A stretch of 64,000 nt of DNA from Planctomycetota bacterium (GTDB lineage Bacteria > Planctomycetota > Phycisphaerae > WQYP01): assembly GCA_021818445.1 (NCBI GenBank), contig JAKAEB010000005.1, positions 26,780-90,779 on the forward strand. The letters run 5' to 3'. The position numbers and the translations under genes were made by a program. Positions 513 to 49,211 of the stretch are shown piece after piece. A model generated the notes under the pieces. That model saw only the letters and a list, made by a program, of their open reading frames with translations. It was not told where the DNA came from and did no database searches. Position 1 is the first letter of the stretch; every line of letters begins with the position of its first letter.

Positions 513-1523
513 ATGAATTCAGGCAAGTATATTCACTCAATCCTTTGCGCGGCTGTCGGTTTTGCCGCCTCTATTTCATTGGTGACCCAAGCCGTGGTCG
601 CTCGTGAGAAGAGCAACAGCGGGGATACGGCCAAAATGGTAAGCACCGTTGGCCATGTGCGACAGAACACACCTATCTGGGTGTATATCCTCGCAGGTCA
701 GTCCAACATGACGGGCCAAGGTTATATGAAAAACCTTCCACCGCATTTTGTCATCAATCGGAAGGTTCTTTTATATCATTCCCCCGGCGATCTTCGCGAC
801 AATGCCCCAGCGGACACCTGGATTCATCTCCGCCAGGCTGCGGAATCGCCTGATCGGTTTGGCCCGGAACTTTCATTTGGCAACCGAATACAGCAATTTT
901 TTCCACATCACCATATTGCACTGATTAAAGACGCCTGGACATCAACAGACCTTGAACACCATTGGAACCCCGGCAAAAACCGCACTGACAAAGCGGATTG
1001 GGGGCCTCAATTTAAGGAATTGGTGCAGACCGTTGACAGCGGTATGAAGTCGCTGCGAAAACTGGGCTATTCCCCACACATTGTTGGCATGCTTTGGCAG
1101 CAGGGCGAAAATGATGCCTTTGATGGGACGAAAGTTTCAGCTCAATACGGGTGGAATCTTTATCATTTTATCCATCGGGTTCGCCAGCAATTCAGGGTAC
1201 CGCACATGCTGTTTGTCTACGGACTGGTGATTCCACAACCAGACATGGGTCTTTTTACGGTTAACGCGCAGTGTCGGGCGCTGGTGCGTCTGGGGGAGCG
1301 TGAGGTCGCGCATAATTCAAAGAGTCCGCTGGCGGTTCACGGTGCCTATTTAGTCAATACCAATGACCTTGAACTGCGTGCCCAGGACCCCAAAGTGCCA
1401 ATTCCCTACCTCAAAAGAGACCATCTGCATTTTGGTACGATGGGACAAATTGACCTCGGATATCTTTACGCCGACAGCATGTACCGGCATCAGACACTAC
1501 TGCCACCGCATTTCCGCAAATAA
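513..1523 (+). CDS. Secreted carbohydrate acetylesterase, SASA/DUF303 (CE6-like, SGNH fold)
   Basis: Signal peptide; motifs ILAGQSNM (catalytic Ser), FGPELSFG, GMLWQQGEND and DHLH. Confidence 0.85.
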   Translation: MNSGKYIHSILCAAVGFAASISLVTQAVVAREKSNSGDTAKMVSTVGHVRQNTPIWVYILAGQSNMTGQGYMKNLPPHFVINRKVLLYHSPGDLRDNAPADTWIHLRQAAESPDRFGPELSFGNRIQQFFPHHHIALIKDAWTSTDLEHHWNPGKNRTDKADWGPQFKELVQTVDSGMKSLRKLGYSPHIVGMLWQQGENDAFDGTKVSAQYGWNLYHFIHRVRQQFRVPHMLFVYGLVIPQPDMGLFTVNAQCRALVRLGEREVAHNSKSPLAVHGAYLVNTNDLELRAQDPKVPIPYLKRDHLHFGTMGQIDLGYLYADSMYRHQTLLPPHFRK

Positions 1524-7973: not shown

Positions 7974-10547
7974 TTATTTAAATACCACACTACCGACGGT
8001 GGATGTATGATTACTTGAATCCCCCACCGCCAGTTGATAGGTTCCCGCCGGTACGATCCATTTATCTTTGTGGGTGTCAAAACAGGCAAAGCTGCGCCAA
8101 TTCAGACTCATCTGGACAATCCGGCTTTGGCCGGGATGGAGTTTAACGCGCTGGAAACCCTCCAGCTTTTGTACCACGCGAACCAGTTTTCCGGCTGGCG
8201 GCTTTACATAAAGCTGCACAACATCCGCTCCCGATCGGCGGCCTGTATTGGTGATGCGGGCCAGTACCATCACTTTTTTATGGCTTTGATGCCCGATGGC
8301 GTTTACTCCGATGCCGGCGATGGCAAAGTGCGTGTATGAAAGCCCGAAACCGAACGGAAACGCCGGCGTAATGTGGTGTTTATTAAACCAGCGATATCCA
8401 ATAAATATGCCCTCGGCAAAATGCACCGTCGGGTGCTTACCCAAAATATCATGCCCTGGAAAATGTCCGTATGCGGGTTCCTGCTTCCTGCTCCAACTGA
8501 ATGTAACCGGCAGGTGACCACTGGGATTGACCTTGCCGAAAATAATATCTGCTACCGCCTGGTTGCCGTTTTCGCCGGGATACCATGCGTCGATAAATGC
8601 ATCGACGTGGTTGATCCATGGCTTAAGTCCGACCGGACCACCAGAGTTAAGCACCACGATGGTATGCGGGTTCAGGCGGCCGACACTTTGCAGATACTCT
8701 CCCTGTAAACTGGGGAGGTTAAAGCTGCGGTCCAGGTCCTCGTGCTCGATTCGCGGACCAAAACCTGCACCGGCCACAACCAGATTGGCCTTGCGAATCA
8801 GGGCTTTTTCCGACGGTGTCAGCAACGAACGACTCATCAGACGCACGCCGAGTTTTACTTCACCGCCCGGTACGGGTGCCAGCGCAGTAATGGGTTTAGC
8901 CACCAGAACAATTTTTATTTTGTATGTTTTGCCGGCTACCAGGTGGTAGCTGTTCATAAATGGCTCGACGGGGCGCGGCCGCCACTGCTCCACCGTGTTG
9001 TACCGATTGATATAAACATTGGCACCGGCTGTACAGAAAAATTTCAGCATGTAATTTCCGGTTACCGTGGGCCGCAGCGTGGTACGAAATACACCGGTGA
9101 AGCCATTCGATCCGTGCAGCCCGTTGGGCCCGCCAGTCGGCCAGTGGTAGTCAACGGTGGGGAGATTTCCAGTGATGCCTGGCTTGGGGGCGTTCATTTT
9201 TGAAAGTTGGTAGCTGCAGCCGTGCGTGTGGGCGTCCCGATAAAGATAGGTACTTTGCCACGCCTGGCTGGATCGATCCAAGTAGGGAATGTTGACGACT
9301 CTGGCATCGGGCGCGTCGGCGCGAATCGCATCAAGCAGGCTGATTGGGCCGGAAATGGGAATCACATATGAGCTTCCGCCACCGCCCGTCACCGCCGGGG
9401 TGGCCATGGGTCCAAGCACCACAATCAGGTCGCCAGCCGACGGTGTCGGTACCGGTAACAGATGTGCTTTGTTTTTAAGTAATACTGCTCCCTGTGCCTC
9501 TTCCGTGTAGGCCGCATAGGCGGAAATGGGGTTATTGCGTGGTATGCATCCCAGCTTCTGCGGACGATCCAGAAAGCCCATTGCCACATCCATTCGCAGT
9601 ATCCGAAGCACATGCGTGTTGATGTTGCCGATGGTTACCTTTCCGCTCCGGATCAGTCGCCCGATCTTTTTCAGGGTGTAATTGATGGGCTTGTGCATTT
9701 CCAGATCCATGCCAGCCAGCAGCGGACCAAGCGTGGAATGCGATGCCCCCCAGTCTGACATTAAAACACCCTTGAACCCCCAATGCTTACGAAGCATATC
9801 GGTAAGTAAAAATTTATTGGCCGTGGAATATTGCCCATTCACCTTGTTGTATGCAGCCATGATACTCCACACATGCCCCTTACGGACGGCTGCGCGAAAC
9901 GGCAGCAGATACAATTCTTCCAGTGCCCGCCGACTGATGATGCAGTTCAGATCCATCCGGTCGGTCTCTTCCTCGTTACCCACATAGTGTTTGGCGCAGG
10001 CTGCCACCTCCTGCGACTGCACACCTTTGATCCACGGCACCGCCAACTGAGCGGTCAGATAGGGGTCTTCACCCATGTATTCAAAGTTACGTCCATCCTG
10101 GGGCTCCCGCATCACATTCATGCCGGGGCCGAATATCAAATGCACACCGCGAGCGCGGCAATCACTGCCAAGCGCCCGGCCGACCCGATAGGCCAGTTTT
10201 CGGTTCCACGAGGCTGCCAGCGCCATTGTCGATGGGTAGGCCGTTGACGCGCCAAACCGTCTAACCCCCACCGATGCATCCGACATAACCAGCGTGGGGA
10301 TGCCAAGCCGCTTAACCCCGGGCACGTCCAGCACATCTTCAAAGGCCATCATCCGAACCTTTTCCTGCAAGGTCATCTGTTTTAAAAGATGCTGGGCGGT
10401 AGCGTTGATTTGCTGCTGTGTGAGTCCGACAGGGCTGTACATTTCAGCACTTCGGGCGTGGCAAACGCCGATGGCCGCGATGGCCATAAGCACTGCGGCG
10501 GTGGCGGACATACCTTTGCACAGCGATTTTATCATTGATGACTGCAT
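7974..10547 (-). CDS. Secreted GH3 beta-glucosidase with PA14 insertion and C-terminal FN3-like domain (start uncertain)
   Basis: GRNFEYMGEDP, KHYVGN, GVLMSDWG (nucleophile Asp), VLLKN, WYPGENG, PSGHLPVTF, FPFGFGLSYT. Confidence 0.93.
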   Translation of the reverse strand: MQSSMIKSLCKGMSATAAVLMAIAAIGVCHARSAEMYSPVGLTQQQINATAQHLLKQMTLQEKVRMMAFEDVLDVPGVKRLGIPTLVMSDASVGVRRFGASTAYPSTMALAASWNRKLAYRVGRALGSDCRARGVHLIFGPGMNVMREPQDGRNFEYMGEDPYLTAQLAVPWIKGVQSQEVAACAKHYVGNEEETDRMDLNCIISRRALEELYLLPFRAAVRKGHVWSIMAAYNKVNGQYSTANKFLLTDMLRKHWGFKGVLMSDWGASHSTLGPLLAGMDLEMHKPINYTLKKIGRLIRSGKVTIGNINTHVLRILRMDVAMGFLDRPQKLGCIPRNNPISAYAAYTEEAQGAVLLKNKAHLLPVPTPSAGDLIVVLGPMATPAVTGGGGSSYVIPISGPISLLDAIRADAPDARVVNIPYLDRSSQAWQSTYLYRDAHTHGCSYQLSKMNAPKPGITGNLPTVDYHWPTGGPNGLHGSNGFTGVFRTTLRPTVTGNYMLKFFCTAGANVYINRYNTVEQWRPRPVEPFMNSYHLVAGKTYKIKIVLVAKPITALAPVPGGEVKLGVRLMSRSLLTPSEKALIRKANLVVAGAGFGPRIEHEDLDRSFNLPSLQGEYLQSVGRLNPHTIVVLNSGGPVGLKPWINHVDAFIDAWYPGENGNQAVADIIFGKVNPSGHLPVTFSWSRKQEPAYGHFPGHDILGKHPTVHFAEGIFIGYRWFNKHHITPAFPFGFGLSYTHFAIAGIGVNAIGHQSHKKVMVLARITNTGRRSGADVVQLYVKPPAGKLVRVVQKLEGFQRVKLHPGQSRIVQMSLNWRSFACFDTHKDKWIVPAGTYQLAVGDSSNHTSTVGSVVFK

Positions 10548-10698
10548 AATCTTCCGTAACCTTTCTGACGCCACTCGGGCGTACTGCAACTAATCTCAGC
10601 TAATGAACCTAGCGTGTATGGTCGTATTCGCAAGGGCCTGCCGCATTCTATCGCCATGGTGGACGCAAAAGAACGGAGTCCGCTTGCAATTAAAGGTT

Positions 10699-12495
10699 TT
10701 AATGCTTCAGGCTGAACACCTCTATCCCATTGATCTGCGCATTGTCACGCTGACTTACGAATTTTAGATTGATCGTGCCATGTGCATCGGCATGGGCGGT
10801 AAAAGATTCGTCAAATGCACGATACCTTCCGCCTGCCAGGGCATAAATATCCACATCCGAAAGTTTTAGATGGTGGTTGGCGAAGACGGCAAATAAGCGT
10901 TTGCGCGGGCCATGCCAATAATATTCCGCCCAATCCAATACCACTGCATATTTGTTACCTGGTTTAAGACCCCGCAAATGGTAGGTGAATGAGCCAAAAC
11001 GGCTGTATTGATATACAACGGGTGGCGCAGCACCTGATACGCGACGGGTTTCGATGGCATGAGTGGTGCCATGCTCAGGCGTGCCACCGTCGGCGTAACC
11101 GACATCTGCCTTAAATACCCCGTGGCTTTTCATATCGCCGCAGTTGATGGCGAGCATCGGCGTACCAAGATCGGTTGCAGATTTGCTGGTCGCGAATTGG
11201 GTGGCGCGTACAACCGGCGTGAATTTCGACACGATCCATCGGTTCATTTTGGAGTCTTTTGTTATTGCGCGGACTTCAGCTCGCGGCAGTTTGAATAGTG
11301 CTGATATTGCGCGCGGAGACAGTGCCGCTATGCGGTAATACCAAGGCTTACCCGCAATAGCGGTTTTGTCCGTCCAAGCCGATAAATCAGGGGCCAACCA
11401 CCACCGACGATCCACGGTGGCAAATGTCGGACTTTCTGACCGCTCAAGTTCAAAGCCTGTCTGGTCGTATGCCGAATCCTTCCATGTAAGTCGTATACCG
11501 CCACCAGCAAGTTTCAGAGCTTGCAGATGCTGTGGCTTGCGGAGGTTCCATTCATATGCTCTAACCCAGTTGACGAGCATGGTTTGAGGAAACTTAGCAC
11601 CCTTCTCCGTGGGCCCGCCGTAGGCACCACCTTCTGCCAAATTCAGTATGATGTAAAAAGGATGGTCGAAAACCCAGCCTTTGCGGGACTGATCACTGGG
11701 AGTAAAGCAGGCGTAGATATGTGAATCACAGGCAAACTGAATTGATCCCGGTGACCAGAACACCTGAAAAATGTGATATCGCTGCCAAAACTGCTTATTG
11801 CGCGGTAACCGGTAAGGGGCCCCGGCACCGACATTCGGTCCATGGATGGTCCCGGTGATAATGTTCGGCCTGTTCCCGGCACTCTCCATAATGTCAATTT
11901 CGCCGCATTGGGGCCAACCCACACGCTTAAAGTTGGAGCCGAGCATCCAGAATGCGGGCCACGATCCCGAACCGGCATCGCGCATGCCACCGGGCACCTT
12001 TATCCGGGCCTCTACCATCCCATAGGTGAAGTTGCCTTTGTGACAGGCTGATGTATTTATCCGCCCAGATATATAAGCGTTTTTTTTCCCGGGGTATGGG
12101 CGCAGCATGATCGCAAGTGCCTTACCACCTTGGGCGTGGGGGTCGCGTACAATATGCATTACCTTGAGACTGTCGGAATAATAGGTCGGGCAGTTTGGAT
12201 CCCATCCTTTGTCGTAAAACCAAATTTTTTTCGTCGGCTGGGACCCCACGGGGCCATCAAATGTCAGATCGAGCCGCAATTTGGGGGGGCTTGCGAACAC
12301 AGTGGGGCTTCCGGTGCCAAGTAGCAATGTCGCGATGGCCGCAATAGAAGCCGTTCTGCAGACGTGCACCATCTGCCGTCTCGTGTACCCTTGGACTGCA
12401 ATGCCGACATGCCGCCAAAACATGTTTTTACTCCTTGCCGCGTCTGTGCCCGGTGATATATCGGAACACACAAAACACCTGGCCGATATATTCAA
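10699..12495 (-). CDS. Secreted GH16 (laminarinase-type) with FN3 and malectin-like domains
   Basis: WPAFWMLG, GEIDIME catalytic motif and FYIILNLAEGG; FN3 (IRLTWKD...GFELERS...YYRIAA); malectin-like C-terminus (AINCG, WAEYYW...RLFAVFAN, NAQINGIEV). Confidence 0.9.
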   Translation of the reverse strand: MNISARCFVCSDISPGTDAARSKNMFWRHVGIAVQGYTRRQMVHVCRTASIAAIATLLLGTGSPTVFASPPKLRLDLTFDGPVGSQPTKKIWFYDKGWDPNCPTYYSDSLKVMHIVRDPHAQGGKALAIMLRPYPGKKNAYISGRINTSACHKGNFTYGMVEARIKVPGGMRDAGSGSWPAFWMLGSNFKRVGWPQCGEIDIMESAGNRPNIITGTIHGPNVGAGAPYRLPRNKQFWQRYHIFQVFWSPGSIQFACDSHIYACFTPSDQSRKGWVFDHPFYIILNLAEGGAYGGPTEKGAKFPQTMLVNWVRAYEWNLRKPQHLQALKLAGGGIRLTWKDSAYDQTGFELERSESPTFATVDRRWWLAPDLSAWTDKTAIAGKPWYYRIAALSPRAISALFKLPRAEVRAITKDSKMNRWIVSKFTPVVRATQFATSKSATDLGTPMLAINCGDMKSHGVFKADVGYADGGTPEHGTTHAIETRRVSGAAPPVVYQYSRFGSFTYHLRGLKPGNKYAVVLDWAEYYWHGPRKRLFAVFANHHLKLSDVDIYALAGGRYRAFDESFTAHADAHGTINLKFVSQRDNAQINGIEVFSLKH

Positions 12496-13430
12496 CTGCC
12501 GATGACCGTCGGTGCCCGCACCGGATCATAAATGTTTTTGATTCGCAGGCCCGCACCGCCCTGCGATCCCGGTGCGTTCGCCGGCGTGCCGCTGGTATTT
12601 CGATTAATGGGGATACCGGTGGCATGCCCGTCAAAAAAAACCGCGTTTCCCCATCCGCCTGCCCGGCTCCAGGTGTTATGTCGATACCGCAGTCCCGTTC
12701 CAAACGTAAATGTTGGTGACCAGTCAGAATTGGCCATGCCGCCGACAATAAATCCATCGGGCGGGACGAGATAGTCTCCAACTCCTGCATACGGTGCCGC
12801 GCAGCCTTCTTGCTGCCAATCGAAGGTTACCCACGATCCGCCATCGGGGAATGCCTGATTCGCATCACCGATGGCCAGCGAATTGGCGGGGTCGCGGATG
12901 GCCGATACAGCCAAAGTAGAATTAAGCGCCACACGTGGGTCAGACGTCAGATACAGGTGCTGGTAGAAGAAGTTGGGGTTACACGCATAATTCAGGCTCC
13001 ATGGGTTACTCATGGACAAAACCGCCGACGGGCAGTGAAAGATAGCCGCATAGGCTTGTCGCCACATATTATTATTGCCACGGGTGGCCATATAGGTCTC
13101 TGGCGTAACGCCCTCATAGAAGCTGAACAGCAGTGAGTCATACTGGTTATTGCCCGTTCCGTATTCCGCCAGACCGTAGGGCAGATGCCCCTCATAGTTT
13201 GCACAGTATGCCAGCAGAATTTGCCCCATGCTGTGAAGATTTCCCTCGCATTGGACGCTTTCGGCCGATGCACTCGCCCGGCTTAGCGTCGGCAGCAAAA
13301 TGGCAATTAAAATGGTGATGATGGCAATAACCACCAGCAGTTCAACCAGCGTAAAGCCGCAGCGCTTGCCGTGTCGGAGGTTGCAACCATGTTTTATGTC
13401 AACCTTAGGAGAACTACATTTTTCGGTCAT
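12492..13430 (-). CDS. Prepilin-type N-terminal cleavage/methylation protein, DUF1559 / H-X9-DG family
   Basis: GFTLVELLVVIAIITILIAILLPTLSRA...QCEGNLHSMG; C-terminal YRH...GNAVFFDGHA. Confidence 0.92.
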   Translation of the reverse strand: MTEKCSSPKVDIKHGCNLRHGKRCGFTLVELLVVIAIITILIAILLPTLSRASASAESVQCEGNLHSMGQILLAYCANYEGHLPYGLAEYGTGNNQYDSLLFSFYEGVTPETYMATRGNNNMWRQAYAAIFHCPSAVLSMSNPWSLNYACNPNFFYQHLYLTSDPRVALNSTLAVSAIRDPANSLAIGDANQAFPDGGSWVTFDWQQEGCAAPYAGVGDYLVPPDGFIVGGMANSDWSPTFTFGTGLRYRHNTWSRAGGWGNAVFFDGHATGIPINRNTSGTPANAPGSQGGAGLRIKNIYDPVRAPTVIGS

Positions 13431-13431
13431 T

Positions 13432-15729
13432 TCAACGGCTCCCCGCCGTATAGGCGACTATGCTGCGGATCAAGGTAATGCTGTATTTGGTGGAGTAGCC
13501 GTCTATCCCCCATGTGTGGGTTCCCAAAAGGCCCGAACCAACATCCAATGGTGAAAAAATAATGACCCATCGCTTGCCACGGCGTACGCCGTAAAGTTGC
13601 GGCAGACGTTTAATTCCGTGTTTCCGCATATAGTATTTTCGAAATACTCCGGGCGCATTACCATGCTTTTGGCCTGCTTGGCCACCAAGCAGTCGGCTTG
13701 AGGCTTTAATTCGCTTCAATGAGGCATGAGGAACCAGTGCGTCCACCAACTTCCGCATGCTGCCTGCCGTGCTGGCGTGCCCACCTATGCAATCCATCAG
13801 CAAGGTTCCACCTGCGGCCAGATATTGCTTGATCGCGGAGACCTGCTGACTGGTCAGGGCCACTTGTGAGGTGCCGGTGATGTAAACCAGCGAATGGCGG
13901 GCGGATGTCGACGCGACAGTCGCGCTGGACGTGTAGTCGATGGTGGTGCCGTAGTTAAGCCGCGATATTCGGGCGTAGCGCCGCCACGCGAATGGTTCGG
14001 GATTCCAGTTCCCTGCATACTTTAATTGGGTGACGTGCAGCGTCCGATTGGTGTGGCCATTTGATCTCGGGACATAAATCGACTTCAGGCGGTTGGTAAG
14101 ATCACCATCCCCTGTGCAGTACAGATAAAGATTCTCGGCAAATATCCACGGGCGTTTCGCTGAAAACGCGTGTCGCTGCCATACTCTGCTCAAGTCCTCC
14201 GGAGCCACGATCCATAGATACCTCGAACCATTGGACATACCGTACGCATTAATAAAAAAGTTTCGATACCACGGCTGCATTTGGTAAAGCAGGCAGGTCT
14301 TTTTGAGCCGCGTGAATTCATATTTTGAATCCATGACATGCTCGCCGAGTTTCATCATGGCCATGCGGAATGATTGCGAGGCATCGTCACATGAACATAG
14401 CACTAACCCGCCAGCGTCAATGTAATGGCGCAACTTTCGTTGTTCGGCGGGGGAATAGACCGGTGGGTGCGAGCCGGTAATGTAAAGTATCGGGGCACTA
14501 AGCCATGTCTTGAGCCTGGATTTAAACGTCACCACCTGCCAATTGACGGGGAAATCAGTTGTCCGGCTCATCCAGGATGCAAGATTCGCTACATCACGTG
14601 GATAACGATTCCATTGCCCGTAATAATGGTGACCGTCGTCGAGCTTGCTCATTAAAAATGGATTCAAGCCGCGATCCAGAATGAGTAACGCATAGGCTGT
14701 GCCGCTGACGGTATCGGCGTCCCAGAAGCCACCGCCCCAGCTTCCATTGTTGTTCTGATTATTAACGAGGGTGCGAACAAAATCGCGGTACCAATTGTGT
14801 CGGCCAAAACTGCTGAGCCCCGATGCCAATCCTACGCGTTCAAACCCGTACATGGCGTATTCATTACTGTCCACTGGCTGGAAATGGGCGTTAATCCACC
14901 TGAGGCCCCGGCTTACGGCCATGTTGCGGCCACGATTCAGATATTCATCGGCAATCAGGAGGCTGGCAATTCCAGCCGGTGTCATCGACTGTTTTCGCCA
15001 AGCCGACGGCTGATGAGCGGGCGGCCTTCCCGCAAACCCCCAGTAGCCCCAACTGCCATCTGGAAACTGCGTACCAACCCAATGGCGCTCTACCAGACGC
15101 CAGTAGCGGTAAGGGGCCGATCGCTGCAGGGCGTGTACGCATGCCCACATACCGAGGACACCGTATTGGCTGTTGGAGTTATCCCATGCCGTAGAGGTAG
15201 CAAAAGGTCTATCCTTTTGCGGAGATCCAAAGTAGGCATAGCTGTAGGCGCCATTATTATGAATGGCCTGGTCTAAATAAATCTGGTCCCAACGCAACAT
15301 TCGTCGCACGGCTGGTTTCAGGGGCAAAAGGGCGAGGGCATTGGCCTGATATGATACGGCGTAATTACCGGTGGGCTTGATGTGGCAAAGCATCGCAATA
15401 GCCGGTTTGAGCGCCGGCCCAAACATACTCAAACTCTTAAGATGCAGTGTCTGCTGGACGTAGAGCAGCGCTTCGACCACCAACGCAGTCTCGCCCCCGC
15501 GTTCGCTGAACGTACCTTCCGGTCCCCGCCCTTTAACCCCGCGCTCCCAGAAACTACCGGGTCGCTCCTGCTTCAAAAGATAATTCACGCCACCGATAAT
15601 TGCCCGGCGGACTACCGCCCCGCTGATCGGCGTGTGCGCGGTCGCAAGGTTTACGACGCAGCATGGAATCATTGCCGCTGTCATCAACGCGGCGATTATC
15701 ATCGACCGTCGGCGTAATGTAATTTTCAT
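13432..15729 (-). CDS. Secreted protein with a prenyltransferase/squalene-cyclase-like alpha/alpha barrel and two DUF4159-like domains
   Basis: Signal peptide; QW-like repeats (QFPDGSWGY, QNNNGSWGG) and WDNSNSQYGVLG; two PILYITG / LVYITG...YIDAGG / YLAAGG domains. Confidence 0.75.
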   Translation of the reverse strand: MKITLRRRSMIIAALMTAAMIPCCVVNLATAHTPISGAVVRRAIIGGVNYLLKQERPGSFWERGVKGRGPEGTFSERGGETALVVEALLYVQQTLHLKSLSMFGPALKPAIAMLCHIKPTGNYAVSYQANALALLPLKPAVRRMLRWDQIYLDQAIHNNGAYSYAYFGSPQKDRPFATSTAWDNSNSQYGVLGMWACVHALQRSAPYRYWRLVERHWVGTQFPDGSWGYWGFAGRPPAHQPSAWRKQSMTPAGIASLLIADEYLNRGRNMAVSRGLRWINAHFQPVDSNEYAMYGFERVGLASGLSSFGRHNWYRDFVRTLVNNQNNNGSWGGGFWDADTVSGTAYALLILDRGLNPFLMSKLDDGHHYYGQWNRYPRDVANLASWMSRTTDFPVNWQVVTFKSRLKTWLSAPILYITGSHPPVYSPAEQRKLRHYIDAGGLVLCSCDDASQSFRMAMMKLGEHVMDSKYEFTRLKKTCLLYQMQPWYRNFFINAYGMSNGSRYLWIVAPEDLSRVWQRHAFSAKRPWIFAENLYLYCTGDGDLTNRLKSIYVPRSNGHTNRTLHVTQLKYAGNWNPEPFAWRRYARISRLNYGTTIDYTSSATVASTSARHSLVYITGTSQVALTSQQVSAIKQYLAAGGTLLMDCIGGHASTAGSMRKLVDALVPHASLKRIKASSRLLGGQAGQKHGNAPGVFRKYYMRKHGIKRLPQLYGVRRGKRWVIIFSPLDVGSGLLGTHTWGIDGYSTKYSITLIRSIVAYTAGSR

Positions 15730-15780
15730 TCAGCTTACCTCAGCGAGATAATCATCAATTGAAGCCGGATTCCGCCGGAA

Positions 15781-16377
15781 CTATTTCTGATATTTGACGT
15801 CATCGAGATAAAAGGTGAAGGGCGAGCCATTGGCGGCTGCCGACCAGTAAAAGCCGGTGATGATGCGGGACATATTTTTTCCCTTAAGCGAGATAGAGTA
15901 TTTTTTCCAGTGTTTACCGAGGGTAACTTTTTTCGACGCCGATGAACTGTCATGATACGCCTTGCCTTTGCCAATGAGTCCGTAGCCAAACGTAACCACC
16001 ACACCCCCGTGCTTTGCTTTGGCCCAAAATACCAGCTTCTTTGCGCCGGTGATGTTGATTCCCCCCTGCGTATCACCCCAATTATTCGCTGGGTTTTGCC
16101 ACACGATCCCACCCCATCCGGAACTTCCGGTAAAGCTGATCTTCAGACAGCGCGTCCCCTTGGGAGGTTTGACATGACACTTGCCATTGTATTGAATTTT
16201 TCCTGTATTTCCCATCCATCCCGATGGAACAAAACCCGAGTTGCCGCTGCCGTTGTTGTAGATCACCAGTGGTAGCGAAGCCTTGGCAGCGGCGTACGCT
16301 GCACCCGCAGCGGCCATCAGGGTGATTACAGCCAACAGGGCGATAAAATGACGGTATGAGAAATTTTTAGACTGCAT
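15781..16377 (-). CDS. Secreted stand-alone putative carbohydrate-binding (galactose-binding-like beta-sandwich) protein
   Basis: Signal peptide; mature region is clearly paralogous to the C-terminal domain of 16435-18300. Confidence 0.75.
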   Translation of the reverse strand: MQSKNFSYRHFIALLAVITLMAAAGAAYAAAKASLPLVIYNNGSGNSGFVPSGWMGNTGKIQYNGKCHVKPPKGTRCLKISFTGSSGWGGIVWQNPANNWGDTQGGINITGAKKLVFWAKAKHGGVVVTFGYGLIGKGKAYHDSSSASKKVTLGKHWKKYSISLKGKNMSRIITGFYWSAAANGSPFTFYLDDVKYQK

Positions 16378-16434
16378 GAAAAAACATCCTTATGTAAAAG
16401 AAGGCCTTTGAAACAATGACCAAGCATTACATTG

Positions 16435-18300
16435 TCATTTTCCGCTGAACACAATCTGGTCGAGATAAAACCGCAGCGGCGTATTATTTGCACCAGCCGT
16501 CCAATAAAATCCGACGATGATGCGCGAAAGATTTTTGCCCGCCAGTCGAAGGGTATATTTTCTCCAGTGCCGGTGCAGCTTGATAGTGCGCGACAGCCGC
16601 GCAGAATCATGATATTTCTGGTTTGATCCGATGAGGCCCACGCCAACGGTAACAGACTGTCCGGCTTTTTGGCCTCTTGCCCAAAATGAAAGTTGCCCGG
16701 CGCCTGTCAAGTTCAGACCGCCCCAATTTTTCCCCCAGTCATCGGCCGGGTCCTGCCACGCTATACCGCCCCAGCAGTGGGGCTTTGTGAGTCCGACTTC
16801 AAGGCATTGCCTGCCTTTGTGCGGGTGTTTACGGCAATGAGGGTTAAACAATATATCCTGATAATTGCCCATCCAACCAGAAGGTACAAATGGGCTCCGC
16901 CCGTTGCCACCATAAATTGCCACCGGCAACTTCGCCTTTGGAGCTCGCATCGGCTGGATGACGCCCTCGTCGAGCAGAGGGATGTTACCGACCGCGGCCC
17001 CATCATGGGCGTTGTAAATATAACAGTACAGGCGATAGAAGCCGCCGCGAGTCGGCATCTTCACGGTAACGGATGGGCGATCGTTATCAATTATTGCGTG
17101 TCGATATCGTCGCGGCATTATCCCACCATGGCCTCCGACGATATTCAGGTTCGAGATGTCGCGTCGTAAAATCCAGTCGTACTGAAGCTTCCCTCCCCCC
17201 GGTTCTGTGGCGGAAACCGTCGCATGGATCAATCCACCCGGTTTAACTTTGTCAGAACCCGTCAGTTTGATGCTCTGCATCAATGGACAGCGATGGGTTG
17301 GCCAATGGCCCGTCCAGAAATGTTGCAGCGCATCGACGGCACCGAGCCGCCGACCATCCGGCAGAATCAGTCCATACCATGTTGGCGTGGCTTCCACTTT
17401 CCACCCCCAGGTGAAGGCGTAACCGCCCAGGCAAAGGCCCCGTGCCGCGAGAATGCTGTTGCGATAGGTGGCCGAGTAGGCTGCCGCCTTCTGCGTGCTG
17501 GTTTCCTCCACGGGCAACCCGATGTTGTTACGGCCGATCTCCCACGTGCCTGGCGGGCCATATTCAGTGATGACGTATGGCTTGTATCCCCCGGCCTTAA
17601 GATACCGCCGGTACAGGGTCGGGCCGCCGCCGTATGAATTAATTCCGATAATGTCGATATCAGGACAATATTTATTTATTTTCTCAACCTTGTGCCCGCC
17701 GATTTCCGCTACTACCGTCATGGTGGGGTGATTGGGGTCAAGCCGATGGCACATGCGTGCAATTTGCTCAACAGCCTTCCATAGTATCTTGTGATCGTAT
17801 CCATTTTCCATTTCATTGCCGATGCCCCACATCAGCACGGCCGGGTTGCTTCGATACTTGAGCACGTATCTCCGGCATTGTTCATACTGGGCGTGCACCG
17901 CTGCGGCATCATGATAGTTGAATCCATCTGAGGGGTGTCCCAGCCAGAACCCGACGGTTACCGTCATATGCAGCCTGGCCGCCAGCCTCAATTCCTTTCC
18001 AATGCCTTCGGCACCCCACGTGCGCCCCGAATTTCCGCCGCAAGCTTTGAGTGCGGTCAGCGAATAACTGCCACCGGCACCCTTAATAAAATAGGGTTTC
18101 CCGTCGCGCAACAATTCCCACCCATGATGCGTCTTGACGATTTGCGTGCGAATCGCCCTGCCTACCGCCGCATGCGCCGCCGTCAGCCCTGCAAAGACGA
18201 GGACGATTGCGGGCAATCGAGACAGGGGGTGCCACAAACGTTGCCGTTTAATAAATCCATCGCATGGCGGAGCATATTTTGCTATTTTGTTACACAACAT
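16435..18300 (-). CDS. Secreted clan GH-A glycoside hydrolase (GH158-like / GH2 TIM-barrel-like), probable endo-beta-1,3-glucanase, with C-terminal CBM-like domain
   Basis: LLRDGKPYFIKGAGG, RTWG, LMWGIGNEME (acid/base), GINSYGG and PYVITEYGP (nucleophile). GH158 assignment is from recalled family motifs. Confidence 0.75.
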   Translation of the reverse strand: MLCNKIAKYAPPCDGFIKRQRLWHPLSRLPAIVLVFAGLTAAHAAVGRAIRTQIVKTHHGWELLRDGKPYFIKGAGGSYSLTALKACGGNSGRTWGAEGIGKELRLAARLHMTVTVGFWLGHPSDGFNYHDAAAVHAQYEQCRRYVLKYRSNPAVLMWGIGNEMENGYDHKILWKAVEQIARMCHRLDPNHPTMTVVAEIGGHKVEKINKYCPDIDIIGINSYGGGPTLYRRYLKAGGYKPYVITEYGPPGTWEIGRNNIGLPVEETSTQKAAAYSATYRNSILAARGLCLGGYAFTWGWKVEATPTWYGLILPDGRRLGAVDALQHFWTGHWPTHRCPLMQSIKLTGSDKVKPGGLIHATVSATEPGGGKLQYDWILRRDISNLNIVGGHGGIMPRRYRHAIIDNDRPSVTVKMPTRGGFYRLYCYIYNAHDGAAVGNIPLLDEGVIQPMRAPKAKLPVAIYGGNGRSPFVPSGWMGNYQDILFNPHCRKHPHKGRQCLEVGLTKPHCWGGIAWQDPADDWGKNWGGLNLTGAGQLSFWARGQKAGQSVTVGVGLIGSNQKYHDSARLSRTIKLHRHWRKYTLRLAGKNLSRIIVGFYWTAGANNTPLRFYLDQIVFSGK

Positions 18301-18333
18301 TCAGTTCTTTACACCGGCTAATGGGTTCACGTG

Positions 18334-18368
18334 AAAAAAAAGGGCCGCCCGTAAGAACGGGCGGCCCT
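18334..18368 (-). terminator. Rho-independent terminator after the PEP-CTERM gene
   Basis: Stem AGGGCCGCCCGT-AAGA-ACGGGCGGCCCT followed by a T run on the minus strand. Confidence 0.9.
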
Positions 18369-18381
18369 GGGATAGAATAAA

Positions 18382-19053
18382 TCAGACTTTGCGACGACGT
18401 AGCAGCGCCAGGCCGGTAGCGCCAGCAAACAACAAACTCGCGGCTGCGGGTTCCGGCGTCGGACTGATCGTTATCAACCCACCGGAAAGATCAAATTCAC
18501 CCGCTCCGCCGGCCGCATTCGTGAATGTCAGCGTGTAGCTGCTTTGGCCGCTAAAAGAACCGGCATCGACAAAGCTCGTGTCACTGTTTATGGCTGTCGG
18601 TGTGCCACCATCGATCGAAACTTGAGGCTCATTTCCCGTCTGGAAAGATTCAAGAAAGGAAAAATTGACCGTATCGCCGGGGGATACCCCGCTCAGCGTG
18701 GCCGTCAAAGGTGTGCTACCGTTTCCAAGGAAAAAAGCATTATTGAGCCACGCAATATCAGTCGTTGGTGTTCCCGACGTTATCCCATTTTGAGTGCTGT
18801 AGTTATTTCCGCTAATACTAAGCGTTGCGCCACTTGCACCTAGGGAATAAGTGGTGGTATTCGCGCTGTTAAACGGCGGTGCCGTAAACGTGGCAACGTC
18901 TACACCCGCTGCCCAACCGGTGTAGGCCGTGTAACCTGTGGGTGCAAATTGCAACCCGTAGGTGGTCGACGCGGCCGCCATGTGGCTGCCTGCCGAGATC
19001 GCGGCTGCCGCCGCAATGCTGGCCATCAACGCAATTCCATTCTTGCTTCTCAT
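18382..19053 (-). CDS. PEP-CTERM surface protein
   Basis: Signal peptide; Thr/Gly/Ser-rich body; C-terminal TPEPAAASLLFAGATGLALLRRRKV; GGAG before ATG 19053. Confidence 0.92.
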   Translation of the reverse strand: MRSKNGIALMASIAAAAAISAGSHMAAASTTYGLQFAPTGYTAYTGWAAGVDVATFTAPPFNSANTTTYSLGASGATLSISGNNYSTQNGITSGTPTTDIAWLNNAFFLGNGSTPLTATLSGVSPGDTVNFSFLESFQTGNEPQVSIDGGTPTAINSDTSFVDAGSFSGQSSYTLTFTNAAGGAGEFDLSGGLITISPTPEPAAASLLFAGATGLALLRRRKV

Positions 19054-19137
19054 ACGATACTCCATAAAAAGAGCAACCATCTCCCACTCCTGGTCCAAGC
19101 TGATATCAGCTCGAGAAAAAACCAGTGCGGCTAGAAA

Positions 19138-20160
19138 TCATTTTTCAACGCCTGATAAGAGAGGACCCGTTGACCCGTGGCACTCAAGCTGGGTTGCCAA
19201 TATCCTTCGCACGGCACTGTTTTGCAGTTCACGCCCCTTTTGAGAAAAGAGCAGGTCCAACGCCTCAAAGGCCACCCGCCCCAGTTCTCTGGCGTCCTGA
19301 CATATGGCCGTCATCGTCGGATGAACCATAAAACGAAGTTCGGCATCATCAAACCCGACGATGGATAAATCTCGCGGTATGCTCCAACCAATACTCTGAG
19401 CCTCCATCATGGCCCCTATCGCGGGCAATGGATCGGCAAAAAACAAGGCTGTTGGCCGCTCGGGCATGGCGGCAATCCGCCGAATCAATTGAATGCCACC
19501 CTCACGTTTCGCAGCGATACGGAAGATCATCCGATCATCCACCGGCAACCCGCGGCTGGTCATGGCTTCGCGGTAGCCAGCGATCCGGTCCAGATGATCG
19601 GAATCATCCACCAGATTGACCGCAATGGCGATACGTTCATGCTTCAAGTCTATTAGATGGTTAACAGCGTCGCGGCTGGAGGTCAGCGAATCGCTTCGCA
19701 CAACGCTGATACTATCGTTATCGAAATGTTCGCCCACCACCACACAAGGAAATCCCTCTTCGGCTATTTGCGTGCAGAGTTCCTTTGCTGCGGAGGTAGT
19801 GCGAAGCACCGCTCCGCGAATTCCCTTCCGCCGAAACATGTGTGAAAATGTTTCGCGTGGATGGACGGCCCGCTTTACATCCAAGATGACCAGATCAAAT
19901 CCACCCGCCTCCATGCGATCGGTAAGGCCTTCCATCAGTGCGGCGTCGAAAGGTGACCCGATGCTGCGGTCGCCCGCATATGCAAACGCAATGTTCATGG
20001 TTTCCCGCCGCCCGATTGTTGGGACATATTGGAGTTTGTTGGCTGCGTTGAGCACGCGCCGCCGCACCTCGGGTGCCACTAAAGGATTGTTATTCAGCGC
20101 GCGCGACACGGTCGCAGGTGAGAGTTTCAATTCCTTTGCGAGGTCTCGTATCGATGCCAT
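19138..20160 (-). CDS. LacI-family transcriptional regulator
   Basis: ASIRDLAKELKLSPATVSRALN HTH; IPRDLSIVGFDD and PTMTAI; GAGGT RBS. Confidence 0.95.
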   Translation of the reverse strand: MASIRDLAKELKLSPATVSRALNNNPLVAPEVRRRVLNAANKLQYVPTIGRRETMNIAFAYAGDRSIGSPFDAALMEGLTDRMEAGGFDLVILDVKRAVHPRETFSHMFRRKGIRGAVLRTTSAAKELCTQIAEEGFPCVVVGEHFDNDSISVVRSDSLTSSRDAVNHLIDLKHERIAIAVNLVDDSDHLDRIAGYREAMTSRGLPVDDRMIFRIAAKREGGIQLIRRIAAMPERPTALFFADPLPAIGAMMEAQSIGWSIPRDLSIVGFDDAELRFMVHPTMTAICQDARELGRVAFEALDLLFSQKGRELQNSAVRRILATQLECHGSTGPLLSGVEK

Positions 20161-20187
20161 GTTGACCACCTCACTGAAAAAAGTATA

Positions 20188-20209
20188 AACAGTTAATGAA
20201 ACTGTTCCA
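20188..20209. promoter_or_regulatory. Candidate LacI operator
   Basis: AACAGTT-N5-AACTGTT inverted repeat overlapping the near-palindrome TGAAACTGTTCCA, about 30-50 bp upstream of the LacI start. Confidence 0.45.
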
Positions 20210-20449
20210 GATTTAATCTTAACTTTTTGCGAAGGGAGTGTCAATGCGCCGGGCCACTTTTTCCGGCATTTTGTGCTTATCGGGCGCTTGAACAGAACCC
20301 TTTACAAATTTCTCCATTTTTATATGTTTGCGAATATAATCTGCCCTGTGCTGGTGCCCGCCAGCCATAAACCATGGGAGTTAGGCCCGGCGACGGTATA
20401 CTGTAGTTGTGGGTATGGGAGATGAATTGAAAGACCAAGGAGGTGTTCA

Positions 20450-44010: not shown

Positions 44011-44048
44011 CCGCCCGGCAAATTGATTTCTGCCGGGCGGTTTTTTAT
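44011..44048 (+). terminator. Rho-independent terminator after tkt
   Basis: CCGCCCGGCA-loop-TGCCGGGCGG-TTTTTT. Confidence 0.88.
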
Positions 44049-44196
44049 TTTCCGCCGGCCCGATCCGTTTAAGCCGCGGACTGACCGTCGCGTGTTGCCA
44101 AATTTCAAACGCTTTTTTCAAGTATCACACGCACGCGGTTGCCGCTATCATTTAGAAATATATCCAAGTTGGTCTTTTTGCAGCGAGGTAGTGTAT

Positions 44197-45210
44197 ATGT
44201 TCAAACGCCGTTGGGTTTTATCCGCCATTGGCCTTATTTTCATCGGTGCATCACGGTGCATTGCGGCCGATACTGGAATGAGCAACGCTGTATGCCCTGG
44301 TGCGGTTTGGCGCGATACGGCGGGACATTTGATTCAGGCTCACGGCGGATGCATCATTAAACAAGGCGATGAATTTTATCTTTTCGGTGAAGACTACTCC
44401 CGGCATAACAAGCCCGACCGTCGGTACATTGACTGCTATCGATCGGCCGATTTAATTCACTGGCATAACTGCGGCGCAGTTGTGCGGCTTAAGAACCCGG
44501 ATTTGCGACTCTTCACCAATAATTGGATATTGCAGCGTCCGAAGGTTCTTTACAACCGTTTCACTCATCGCTATGTGATGTACGCCCACATTGACGGGCG
44601 AGGTTATTCGCTGGCGCGCGTGGCGGTGTTTATCAGCCGTACGATAGCCGGGCATTACCGGTATTTACGCAGTTTCCGCCCTCTGGGGCATCAAAGCCGC
44701 GATATTGGAATGTACCAAGCTCGTAATGGAAAAGCGTATTTATTATTTGAAGATCGACCATCGGGTTTCCGCATCGCGGAGTTATCCCTCAACTATCTGC
44801 ATGTAAAGAAAAATATCTGTCTGATTCACCAGCATCTGGAGGGTTTGGGACTGGTTCACTATCATGGATTGTACTATGTTGTTGGTTCGCATTTGACAGG
44901 CTGGGGACCAAACCCGGATGTGTATGCGACGGCCAGGTCGCTGCGCGGCCCTTGGAGCAAATTTCGAAATATAGCCCCGCCACGGACTAAAACGTACCAT
45001 TCGCAGTCAGGATTTTTGCTCAAGATTACCGGCACACGGCGTACGGCCTTCATCTATATGGGCGACCGATGGAATCCAAGGGAGTTGTGGAATTCCCGGT
45101 ACATCTGGATGCCTCTGCAGATCGGCAACGGAAGACTCTGGCTTCCGAAGCCGCGGTGCTGGCGCATCAACGTCCACACCGGGGTGATTTCTTATGTGCG
45201 TCGACATTAA
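44197..45210 (+). CDS. Secreted GH43 (subfamily 24-like, exo-beta-1,3-galactanase type)
   Basis: IQAHGG, FGE, (Q)RPKVLYN, SRD, SHLTGW, YHSQ, MGDRW and SRYIWMPL. Confidence 0.85.
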   Translation: MFKRRWVLSAIGLIFIGASRCIAADTGMSNAVCPGAVWRDTAGHLIQAHGGCIIKQGDEFYLFGEDYSRHNKPDRRYIDCYRSADLIHWHNCGAVVRLKNPDLRLFTNNWILQRPKVLYNRFTHRYVMYAHIDGRGYSLARVAVFISRTIAGHYRYLRSFRPLGHQSRDIGMYQARNGKAYLLFEDRPSGFRIAELSLNYLHVKKNICLIHQHLEGLGLVHYHGLYYVVGSHLTGWGPNPDVYATARSLRGPWSKFRNIAPPRTKTYHSQSGFLLKITGTRRTAFIYMGDRWNPRELWNSRYIWMPLQIGNGRLWLPKPRCWRINVHTGVISYVRRH

Positions 45211-45219
45211 TGCTGCGCG

Positions 45220-48200: not shown

Positions 48201-48294
48201 TTGTCAGAGTCCGAACAGGCGGTGTCGCATATGTTGCCGTTTTCAATTTAGAGAACCAAACCTTTCTGTTTATTCCTCGGCATCGTCTGGCCAT
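45220..48294 (-). CDS. Secreted GH35 beta-galactosidase (start uncertain)
   Basis: SGSLHYPR, YIFWNYQEP, LRVGPWDCAEW, QLENE, TEMWSGWF, GGTNF and WINGHNLGRY. Confidence 0.92.
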   Translation of the reverse strand: MARRCRGINRKVWFSKLKTATYATPPVRTLTTPKSPAFAPLRQWLVVGIFAWLASFAFVPSAGATMFVPPKSVASKIRIDGKGFVINGKRVFVVSGSLHYPRVPRAMWADRMEKMKRAGYNCLSTYIFWNYQEPHEGQFNFHGRHNIAAFVKLAQKMGFYVILRVGPWDCAEWDSGGYPVWLRFIPGLSVRHGDAPYIAALRQYYHKLLPQLIPLQVTHGGPVIMMQLENEDPQGWGAVLPNNYYKYLYHECMKFGVNVPLFFSGQHHGPDPAGTRPFNHAGSQAPWFTTEMWSGWFTQYGEWPIGSHQRLVMMRAPWDVIANGGAGYNVYMTIGGTNFSHWNNQSNKASYDFGSPVGQGGNLRPSYYNYKFANYFGRSFQSILADSVDVTGQYKNFATNVSIAARRSSAGTIVFLRNFSPQTQTAKAKIGGTLTIPANRTVPVILNYKLNAHFRIAALCGRVFGCFRQSPTVETLIMYGRPKSTGLVQIDAVGGKAVTASSGWKTATRGKYSLSIKFSAGAPSIYALHNGRHTLRIIVMSNTLAQRTWIIKKHDQRFIVMGPEFIGHAKLSSGHLRLRIQRPMLSKSSSVKVELLPPAGKPYTQVATFPKITPPPAPALAQWQWRVDDQPASPAFNDSAWLSCVNPRQMGADDYPGAYEWYRAQIKIPATGNYTLELPGIRSYAEVFINGQMRFIGGGGLRIIHLTKGKTTMAVFTVNQGRSKMWGYAGPLAPVFKMGMFGAVHLKRQEMHARWITAWRVKQVATPVANIVANVLSNEPGHKGWKIYQRGTSLPVAKKGYWWFRAMTGRIAADSLRLFLPQLPNGVMLFVDGHQLTLSKSPKNQLHTVMREGWHHGNRKNRLDLLIPVQKKAFQFDAKLRMLTKFRAPAFGKSGHVTPWKMHGGIGPINAKSGWKAGSVATGVPTFYKSSFVISTLAGGLHRVLRLAMTGMSGGYVWINGHNLGRYPDNIMPLGLYIPSAWLHTGRNSIIVFDEQGHSPTQVHLSIYAAACRQNLRITLPAAG

Positions 48295-48518
48295 TATTCG
48301 TTGCCAAGAAGCAGCTTACCAAACGGAGTCTATAACAAAAACGCCGGGATGGCGATTGTATTTCTGCAACCCAGTCCATCTTATAACAGCCAAAACAGTC
48401 AATTGGCGCGGATGTTTCAAAAAATTTGGGGCAATGGGTATGAATTGGCGTTGGCTTGTGACTGCTGTATCGCTTTTGCAGCACAATTCGTTAGAATCGT
48501 GGTAAGGCAGGCACCGAA

Positions 48519-49211
48519 TTGAAGGATACGAGCACCATATCTGATTCAAACAATTTTTCCGCGGTGGCACTCCGTCTTTATTCTTATATCAGCCGTCGGC
48601 AAACCGACCACGCCACCCTTTTACTGCGTCGCCAAATGGCCAAGCTGACCACGGAGCAAGTACACCTGAATATCATACTTCCGGCGGTAGGGTTGGCTGG
48701 TACAAAAGCGGCATTACATGAGATTACGAATGACGACGCCCATGCCATTTTTGAGGATTTCAATAACCTGCTGGATATTTGCCGATCGAGCATGCAGCGT
48801 CAACCACCCCTCGGTTTGGACATGCACGCGGTCAGCCTGCCCGGCGAACTGCATGGGGCCGGCCTTCGGGTGATATGTGATTGGCTTTGGCGCGATGGCT
48901 GGGAAACGCATCTTAATGTTTGCACCACCGGCGAGAGTGGGTTGGCTGAACAATTACTGAAAAAGCCGCCCCAGATGCTGGCCATTTCGTGTTCCACCCC
49001 CCGGCAGGCTACCACCGCCCGAAGGTTGATCCGCCTGCTGCGGCGCGGGGGTTTTGCGGGTTCAATCTGGATCGGCGGCATGGCCATCAACGCCTTTCCC
49101 GCGCTGTTTGAGCGAAGCGGGGCCGATCATACAGCGCCGGATATCGTGCGGTTTTCGCGTGAATTAGCCACTGAATTTGGCTATTCGACCGCCACGCCTC
49201 CTTACCTCTGA
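48519..49211 (+). CDS. Stand-alone cobalamin-binding domain protein
   Basis: PGELHGAG (ExHxxG), LAISCST and IWIGG; N-terminal helical cap. Confidence 0.8.
   Translation: MKDTSTISDSNNFSAVALRLYSYISRRQTDHATLLLRRQMAKLTTEQVHLNIILPAVGLAGTKAALHEITNDDAHAIFEDFNNLLDICRSSMQRQPPLGLDMHAVSLPGELHGAGLRVICDWLWRDGWETHLNVCTTGESGLAEQLLKKPPQMLAISCSTPRQATTARRLIRLLRRGGFAGSIWIGGMAINAFPALFERSGADHTAPDIVRFSRELATEFGYSTATPPYL

Follow-up and report, generated by a model that had tools for sequence, protein, structure and literature searches.

How do planctomycetes bring polysaccharides into the periplasm, and what is the role of their large prepilin-type protein family? Both questions meet in a stretch of 64,000 nucleotides from a Phycisphaerales bacterium (assembly GCA_021818445.1, contig JAKAEB010000005.1, forward-strand positions 26,780 to 90,779), referred to below, at its full length, as the window. 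On its minus strand, eight consecutive co-oriented open reading frames (ORFs) at 7974-20244 make up what, to judge by its sequence, is a LacI-controlled beta-1,3-glucan utilisation cluster. Among its enzyme genes lies a gene for a 312-residue prepilin-type protein (12492..13430, minus strand), here called the pilin-like protein. According to the available part of PMC10632474, prepilin-type/DUF1559-like proteins form the largest planctomycete paralog family, with 68 copies in Planctopirus limnophila and no known function. An earlier reading of the window alone (the original prediction) had tied the pilin-like gene to sugar degradation, and our analysis upholds this tie: genome-wide and in other phyla, such genes are non-randomly linked to carbohydrate-active enzymes (CAZymes), regulators and PEP-CTERM proteins. 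The locus and the genome-wide pattern link the two questions, and they name concrete genes for testing with laminarin, a cheap and well-defined substrate.

Pilin-like genes accompany sugar-degradation genes across the genome

Genes were called in window and genome alike with a home-made, heuristic longest-ORF caller. A motif scan of these calls yielded 44 pilin-like genes, and a protein search gave 46 matching places. Their neighbours within ±3 genes were annotated with Pfam (159 ORFs and the genes of the window; of 172 ORFs sought, 7 were beyond the sequence retrieved), and the control comprised 193 neighbours of 40 random size-matched genes, each more than 10 genes from any pilin. A degradative CAZyme or sulfatase (E ≤ 1e-10) was found within ±3 genes of 20 of the 44 pilin-like genes and of 4 of the 40 controls (Fisher p 5e-4), and a LacI/XylR/AraC/ROK regulator within the same distance of 12/44 and 1/40 respectively (p 0.002), where the 44 paralogs represent 36 loci and neither they nor their kin are independent. 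These counts replace a looser first tally (22/44 for CAZymes, 13/44 for regulators) from which a beta-helix protein, a lectin-type protein and an ECF sigma factor were dropped.

PEP-CTERM-like proteins are the third partner. One is encoded within ±2 genes of 20/44 pilin-like genes, whereas 2000 permutations gave 3.8 on average and never more than 13. Genome-wide, the C-terminal pattern used flags 79 PEP-CTERM tails, which read as textbook examples and of which Pfam confirms five. The recurrent unit consists of a regulator, a PEP-CTERM protein, a pilin-like protein and enzymes, the enzyme families in these cassettes being GH2, GH5, GH28 with CE8, GH31, GH43, GH51, GH53, GH78, GH127, PL4 and sulfatases. 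At 20 genomic loci (for example L125:5009-5980 with the next pilin gene) the PEP-CTERM proteins are about 250-400 residues long, mutually dissimilar and encoded on the same strand beside prepilin-type genes; two pilin-adjacent PEP-CTERM proteins match the HpiC1 family, which resembles carbohydrate-binding modules (CBMs).

The pilin-like protein as a type-4-filament subunit

The pilin-like protein carries a class III signal: a 24-residue leader ends in KRCG and is followed by FTLVELLVVIAIITILIAILLP, with FTLVE including Glu5. It matches PF07963 (E 7.8e-8, 32 bits against a cut-off of 21.2) and TIGR02532 (27.9 bits against 16.3). Its AF2 model (pLDDT 89.1, pTM 0.84) has the lollipop shape of a pilin, with a helix at residues 28-78 and a globular head. 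In a VIA search with this model, 19 of the top 20 rows were pilins or pseudopilins (best Z 4.6, to 6xxd_A, rmsd 3.7 over 123 aligned residues), and the Foldseek alignments to type IV pilins, with E 0.42 at best, covered just the helix. Homologs are numerous, exceeding 4419 at E ≤ 1e-5 among 8000 scored candidates. Across 66 aligned homologs the N-terminal tract, two cysteines and a RYRH...N...DGH block are invariant, as are H251, D267 and H269, while Gly-1, Phe+1 and Glu+5 of the class III signal are invariant or nearly so. By its defining sequence features, then, the protein is classed as a type-4-filament subunit with an enlarged head that lacks a recognised binding fold.

The family name needs more care. 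The DUF1559 label of the original prediction had to be given up: PF07596 (DUF1559, SBP_bac_10) had no match to the protein at E ≤ 5, and only the prepilin N-terminal methylation motif was matched. PF07596 is carried by one of the 120 listed homologs, and ten other places in the genome match it, the pilin-like gene itself excluded. The C-terminus reads RYRH-x15-DGH, that is, a spacing of H-x15-DG, and at E ≤ 5 TIGR04294 (H-X9-DG) does not match the 102 C-terminal residues. One source gives the name prepilin-type/H-X9-DG to some homologs of about 42% identity, and the pilin-like protein is therefore counted, on its sequence features, as a spacing variant of the wider H-X9-DG group. The literature searched assigns no function to DUF1559 and holds nothing on a CAZyme association of H-X9-DG proteins.

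A shared filament machine and its possible uses

The host genome (3.71 Mb in 124 contigs, 93.75% complete) encodes one prepilin peptidase (PF01478 match), two PilB/GspE-type ATPases, two PilT/PilU-family ATPases (435 and 397 bits, both exceeding the cut-off of 319) and a single secretin with a weak match to the Amuc_1098 family. A GspF/PilC-type platform protein adjoins four pilin genes. In profile scans, GspF, GspG and GspD of type II secretion and PilB, PilC and PilQ of the type IVa pilus all matched below cut-off, the platform protein scoring best as GspF and several pilin-like paralogs as GspG; one of the PilB/GspE-type ATPases just reaches the GspE equivalog cut-off (630.5 against 630.25). 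To judge by these matches, the type-4-filament toolkit is complete-looking, retraction ATPases included, and the pilin-like protein shares its genome with both a peptidase and an assembly machine that could serve it. On contig C55, L115:3817-10456 holds the platform gene and, after it, four divergent pilin genes along with large ORFs that have no assignment; this is the probable core filament operon, and its pilins are the most distant from the cassette pilins on a quick IQ-TREE phylogeny with SH-aLRT support only. PF00593, the TonB-dependent receptor profile, had no match in this 93.75% complete genome, and was found in 1/11 genomes of the same family, weakly, and in 28/81 genomes of the class. 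The shared uptake machine of the original prediction is thus borne out as to its parts, PilT-type ATPases among them, and as to the missing TonB-dependent receptor hit.

We tentatively favour, as a plausible reading of these features, glycan capture and import by a shared type-4-filament machine in which the pilin-like protein is a minor subunit specific to its cassette. Once cleaved by the prepilin peptidase, it would join the shared retractile filament as such a subunit, and its variable head, perhaps with the cassette's PEP-CTERM protein, would capture the cognate glucan at the cell surface. PilT-driven retraction would then draw the glucan as far as the single secretin, or through it, and into the periplasm, where GH158 and GH16 would cut it and GH3 would trim the products to glucose for uptake by shared inner-membrane carriers encoded elsewhere. 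The (alpha/alpha)6-DUF4159 protein of the cluster may be a lineage-specific periplasmic helper in this process.

The same parts may instead drive export, and a secretion adaptor is possible as a close rival. The pilin-like protein would then be a cassette-specific type II pseudopilin, co-expressed with the enzymes of its cassette, with whose help a shared pseudopilus would recognise GH158, GH16 and the other enzymes and push them across the outer membrane for extracellular digestion, the sugars returning via porins. The ATPase at the GspE cut-off, the platform protein and paralogs that score best, below cut-off, as GspF and GspG, and the Sec export of all the enzymes with their binding modules fit this arrangement, and with no TonB-dependent receptor hit extracellular digestion is a plausible lifestyle. 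Glycan import is nevertheless favoured because one glycan is a simpler shared ligand per cassette than the several unrelated enzymes that one pilin would otherwise have to recognise, because two PilT-family retraction ATPases are present, and because many cassettes hold mainly exo-acting families, which fit periplasmic action better than secretion. GH2, GH3, GH31, GH43, GH51, GH78 and GH127 are mainly exo-acting and usually periplasmic. To our knowledge, classical type II systems lack PilT-type retraction ATPases, and we know of no type II system that encodes its pseudopilins together with their cargo, which we count against the secretion adaptor. Import is further favoured by two published cases: in planctomycetes, fibres bind dextran before it accumulates in the periplasm (PMC5394234), and in Akkermansiaceae a tie exists between pilus genes and the uptake of glycans (PMC13174399).

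The prepilin N-terminus might also merely tether the head to the inner membrane, as a non-polymerised anchor. In that case the protein would be a periplasmic oligosaccharide binder or scaffold that hands products to carriers or holds enzymes. The 1-bp spacing from the exported DUF4159 gene, compatible with translational coupling, might indicate such a periplasmic complex; solute-binding proteins are few in the genome (4 SBP_bac_1 matches); and DUF1559 proteins are called solute-binding in the available text of PMC4807772, in keeping with the Pfam name SBP_bac_10. We consider the anchor unlikely, however. All 66 homologs keep the complete class III signal without variation, Glu5 among it, the head is without a periplasmic-binding-protein fold, and PF07596 itself is unmatched. 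Glu5 is needed for filament assembly rather than for anchoring.

Recurrence in other genomes and the evidence against import

Eighty GH158 loci were fetched, and the GH158 ORF was recovered by the caller in 73 of them; the closest homologs of the window's GH158 (59-68% identity) are in Phycisphaerales and Planctomycetota assemblies. The arrangement LacI-PEP-CTERM-pilin-GH158-CBM is present in L021 and L082, PEP-CTERM-pilin-GH158-CBM in L045 (Verrucomicrobiia) and LacI-pilin-GH158 in 5/10 Abditibacteriota loci; the arrangement spans three phyla. GH81 or GH1 enzymes join in 3 of 12 pilin and GH158 loci, and in Abditibacterium (L050:13801-16131 and L056:12950-14524) a GH81 beta-1,3-glucanase stands where the window cluster has GH16. 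TonB-dependent receptors as replacements for the pilin in other phyla were looked for and not seen, with none at E ≤ 1e-8 among 37 GH158 neighbours from 9 loci, several proteins of about 1000 residues being unassigned; the sole transporter recognised among these neighbours is an MFS sugar transporter in L072.

The window pilin itself has matches at E ≤ 1e-60 in 2 of 44 other family genomes. One, at 54% identity, is a plausible ortholog, and the other, at 43%, is no closer than the paralogs in the window's own genome. The ortholog lies at the far end of cluster L021, in another genus, where the order is LacI-PEP-PEP-pilin-GH158-CBM-GH16-unknown-pilin, and it groups with the window pilin on the tree (SH-aLRT 96). 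Between GH16 and this ortholog, at L021:14390-15616, is a 408-residue ORF with no Pfam match, roughly in the place of the DUF4159 protein.

A number of results weigh against import through a cassette-specific pilin. Near 24 of the 44 pilin-like genes there is no recognised CAZyme. A pilin-like gene lies within ±3 genes of GH158 in 13/73 loci and is absent in 60/73 (present in Planctomycetota 6/38, Abditibacteriota 5/10, Verrucomicrobiota 1/3 and unlabelled 1/4, and in none of the Armatimonadota (0/10) or other phyla (0/8)); the recurrence of such cassettes that the original prediction proposed to look for thus stands for Phycisphaerales, Abditibacteriota and Verrucomicrobiia, and fails for most GH158 loci. 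Of 12 pilin and GH158 loci (72 unlabelled neighbours scanned), two (L045, L081) contain genes for ABC solute-binding proteins or permeases and ten have no transporter. The idea of one conserved beta-glucan pilin is rejected, since on the quick tree the GH158-adjacent pilins need at least four origins and are not one clade; the five from Abditibacteriota form a clade of their own. There is therefore no conserved glucan-specific pilin, and the association looks repeatedly assembled rather than inherited once. The head of the pilin-like protein showed no known lectin or binding fold, with nothing at E ≤ 0.001 by Foldseek against the Protein Data Bank (PDB) and nothing at Z ≥ 5 by VIA. The parts of the machine would serve secretion equally, and the authors of PMC13274419 proposed type II secretion of alginate lyases for an analogous cluster. 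Finally, the 18 public runs listed for the locus (mine drainage, wastewater, sediment and soil; six coded studies) are all DNA, with no RNA.

Some of these results would equally be expected if there were no functional link at all, the pilin-like family being very large and mobile, its presence incidental and the locus an ordinary CAZyme cluster that uses transporters encoded elsewhere. The 60 GH158 loci without an adjacent pilin, the 42/44 other family genomes without a window-pilin ortholog at E ≤ 1e-60 (one of the two hits being only 43% identical) and the several lineages of the adjacent pilins agree with this explanation, which we nonetheless regard as very unlikely. Pilin-like genes lie near CAZymes, regulators and PEP-CTERM proteins more often than the random controls allow for, the cluster genes are co-oriented with spacings of 1 bp and -4 bp, the ortholog is kept in a rearranged cluster of another genus and the arrangement recurs in three phyla.

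If import through a cassette-specific minor pilin is taken as the working reading, it may be extended to the large prepilin-type family as a whole (the DUF1559 / H-X9-DG kind of Planctomycetota, Verrucomicrobiota and Abditibacteriota). This family would supply a library of minor pilins, each specific to one substrate, encoded in the matching sugar cassette, usually beside a PEP-CTERM surface binder, and plugged on demand into one shared retractile filament that reels the cognate polysaccharide through a single secretin into the periplasm. The extension is rather doubtful. Under it, the library would do the work of SusC/SusD in bacteria without TonB-dependent glycan importers, and 'selfish' polysaccharide uptake by planctomycetes would have its genetic basis there. 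If pilin-like proteins are substrate-specific, they would also be markers of sugar-degradation cassettes where prediction of polysaccharide utilisation loci (PULs) from SusC/D fails.

Relation to known systems

Bacteroidota laminarin PULs, from the Bacteroides uniformis work behind PDB 6pal, reportedly place GH16, GH158 and GH3 around SusC/SusD. GH16/GH158/GH3 and non-catalytic binding proteins are common to those loci and the present one; here, however, there is no SusC/SusD, the regulator is of LacI type, and PEP-CTERM and pilin-like proteins fill the non-enzyme places. In the case of the Neisseria pilin ComP, retraction draws the ligand in through the secretin. ComP, which acts in DNA uptake, and Streptococcus sanguinis PilC, a pilin whose lectin module binds glycans (PMC9934059, available part), are ligand-binding minor or modular type IV pilins and resemble the pilin-like protein in their class III signal, long alpha1 helix and enlarged head. 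In both, a low-abundance subunit gives a shared filament its ligand specificity, as may be the case here. The present proteins differ in being spread as some 44 paralogs across sugar-degradation cassettes instead of lying in a pilus operon, in having no recognisable lectin module and in being known from sequence.

Further parallels come from the wider Planctomycetota-Verrucomicrobiota-Chlamydiota (PVC) group. Verruconatronum alginivorum has a pulG-like pseudopilin, pgaptmp_000050, with 67 homologs, inside an alginate-induced cluster and up-regulated on its substrate by proteomics (PMC13274419, available part). That case is likewise a multi-copy pseudopilin-type gene in a polysaccharide-degradation cluster of a PVC host without a canonical PUL, although phylum and substrate differ, a putative uronate transporter is included and its authors suggest enzyme export; the available text reports no genome-wide PEP-CTERM or regulator association, and the supplements may differ. 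In Akkermansiaceae, type-IV-like pilus genes are tied to glycan uptake (PMC13174399, available part). The Akkermansia MUL2 locus of that study again connects pilus-type genes of a PVC bacterium with glycan attachment and periplasmic uptake; unlike the present pattern, in which enzyme cassettes would each have a substrate-specific pilin, it is a single dedicated locus that combines PilM with just one pilin. Within the same phylum, pili-like fibres of planctomycete crateriform structures bind dextran, which later appears in the periplasm, by an uptake system 'still to be characterized' in the words of PMC5394234. Polysaccharide binding before periplasmic appearance would, on the favoured reading, be common to both, whereas the fibres were observed in Planctomycetia, not Phycisphaerae, and the available text assigns no genes to them. 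The present system is built from familiar components, namely type-4 pilins, PEP-CTERM proteins and CAZyme clusters, with one analogous case in print. The original prediction of an undescribed system may accordingly hold for the genome-wide pattern, since no report of it or of the pilin/PEP-CTERM pairing was found in the literature searched, the supplements of the cited papers possibly holding related tables; it does not hold for the pseudopilin-bearing cluster as such, a similar one having been reported (PMC13274419).

Enzymes and binding modules of the cluster

All eight predicted ORFs are present on the minus strand, and most of their families are confirmed by profile or structure-sequence matches. 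The GH158 gene (16435..18300) encodes a signal peptide, the enzyme and a C-terminal carbohydrate-binding-like module. Residues 50-442 match the solved GH158 members 9oro (E 5.6e-96) and 6pal (E 2.7e-56), which makes the assignment clear where Pfam gives just a weak GH2-TIM match; the alignment keeps the NE and TE(Y/F)G positions, which we take to be catalytic. Downstream, at 15781..16377, lies a stand-alone exported copy of the module, a paralog of the C-terminal 170 residues of the GH158 protein (phmmer E 8e-58), in agreement with the predicted solo CBM. This solo protein had no Pfam match and only chance-level rows in a PDB sequence search, and in the ESM Atlas the clusters closest to it bear the names CBM11 or CBM30, which is a lead only. 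The succession of GH158 and solo module recurs in 12 of the related GH158 loci.

The GH16 gene (10699..12495) encodes a signal peptide, a laminarinase-type GH16 domain (PF00722, E 5.8e-17), an unassigned linker domain and a malectin domain (PF11721, E 2.1e-14). Its closest solved relatives are beta-1,3-glucanases (2hyk, E 1e-42; 5wut, E 1.6e-40), the nine best PDB sequence matches are all beta-1,3-glucanases or laminarinases, and its ExDxxE motif reads EIDIME. The FN3 domain ascribed to this protein was not recovered, residues 316-448 giving no Pfam match. The GH3 gene (7974..10589) encodes an exo-beta-glucosidase-type protein with a signal peptide, a PA14 insert and an Fn3-like domain (PF00933 E 3.3e-48, PF01915 E 1.1e-40, PF14310 E 2e-22, PF07691 E 3.5e-7). 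Pfam and solved-structure matches support the prediction of GH16, GH158 and GH3 as beta-1,3-glucan enzymes, and the set points to a laminarin- or curdlan-type glucan as the probable substrate.

The DUF4159 gene (13432..15729) encodes an exported protein of 765 residues whose AF2 model (pLDDT 81.4, pTM 0.82) shows an (alpha/alpha)6 toroid at the N-terminus and, behind it, two DUF4159 domains (PF13709, two stretches). The toroid resembles terpene cyclases and GH88/GH105/GH76 barrels; Foldseek returned the terpene cyclases 8paj (E 4.7e-7), the GH88 structure 3wiw (E 3e-4) and the DUF4159 structure 4i66 (E 3e-5), and a PDB sequence search gave chance-level rows only. Homologs occur in 32 of the 41 genomes searched (its own and 40 relatives), with one to a dozen matches each and no full-length match above 49% identity in that search. 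Among the GH158 loci, an ortholog 57% identical follows GH158 and CBM in L082, and others at 45% in L023 and L029, so that GH158-CBM-DUF4159 synteny is seen in these three. The protein had been cast as a core partner of the pilin-like gene. As a general partner of pilin-like genes it is rejected, with only one of five other genomic paralogs (C38) near such a gene; it is a lineage-specific accessory of the beta-glucan locus, outside the general cassette.

Regulator, PEP-CTERM protein and transcription units

The LacI-family gene (19138..20244) encodes a sugar-responsive type of repressor with PF00356 (E 6.9e-11) and PF13377 (E 5.2e-25) domains. Its true start is likely the ATG at 20160 (codon 29), just ahead of the helix-turn-helix. 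A promoter-like TTGACA-17-TAAGAT (10/12) lies at 20244-20216 on the minus strand, about 55 nt upstream of this ATG; promoter-like sites at the locus are not above shuffles (10 vs 10.0). No LacI operator palindrome of at least 12 nt was found in the three intergenic stretches scanned, the terminator hairpin described below aside.

The PEP-CTERM protein (18382..19098) has a signal peptide, a beta-sandwich-like body and the tail TPEPAAASLLFAGATGLALLRRRKV, in which TPEP, a hydrophobic stretch and RRRK succeed one another (TIGR02595, 20.1 bits against a cut-off of 16). An exosortase is encoded in the genome (PF09721, E 5e-52), which completes the PEP-CTERM/exosortase sorting pair. Orthologs at 61% identity occupy the equivalent place in L021 and L082. 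The structural neighbours of the body in the ESM Atlas are CAZyme accessory domains (TM 0.56-0.68, a lead only), and the protein is a candidate surface-anchored glycan binder.

From LacI to GH3 the intergenic gaps are, in order, 39, 81, 57, 51, 1, -4 and 109 bp. The predicted 1-bp spacing of the DUF4159 and pilin-like genes is confirmed, whereas the 4-bp overlap of pilin and GH16 holds only with the longest-ORF TTG start of GH16. With ATG starts at codon 25 or 42 the gap after the pilin becomes 68 or 119 nt, and codon 42 sits just ahead of a signal-peptide-like stretch. N-terminal signal-type sequences were read in 6/6 non-regulator partners of the pilin-like gene. Directly 3' of the PEP-CTERM gene and before GH158, the minus-strand hairpin at 18341..18368 combines a perfect 12-bp inverted repeat (10 G-C pairs), a 4-nt loop and seven T. 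It is likely a terminator or attenuator that parts LacI and PEP-CTERM from the enzyme genes, and the eight genes may therefore form two transcription units.

Surroundings of the cluster

The absence of SusC/D, ABC and MFS genes that had been claimed for the locus extends to the 30 other window genes scanned, and no SusC-like TonB-dependent transporter adjacent to a SusD-like lipoprotein, the strict mark of a Sus-like PUL, was found among cluster or window genes. The flanks are housekeeping, with NIF3 and an aminotransferase on one side and a TPR protein, a SpoIIE phosphatase, NusA and IF-2 on the other. A second carbohydrate-active group at window 44023-54064 comprises GH43, GH35, a GDSL esterase, an esterase and a GH29 fucosidase with a twin-arginine (TAT) signal, and no pilin-like, PEP-CTERM or regulator gene was recognised within it. 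A SASA esterase is encoded at window 513-1523. DNA near-identical to window 10600-20300 (at least half of sampled words) is present in 16 public DNA runs, some of them perhaps the source of the assembly, which belong to four coded studies and come from mine drainage, wastewater and sediment.

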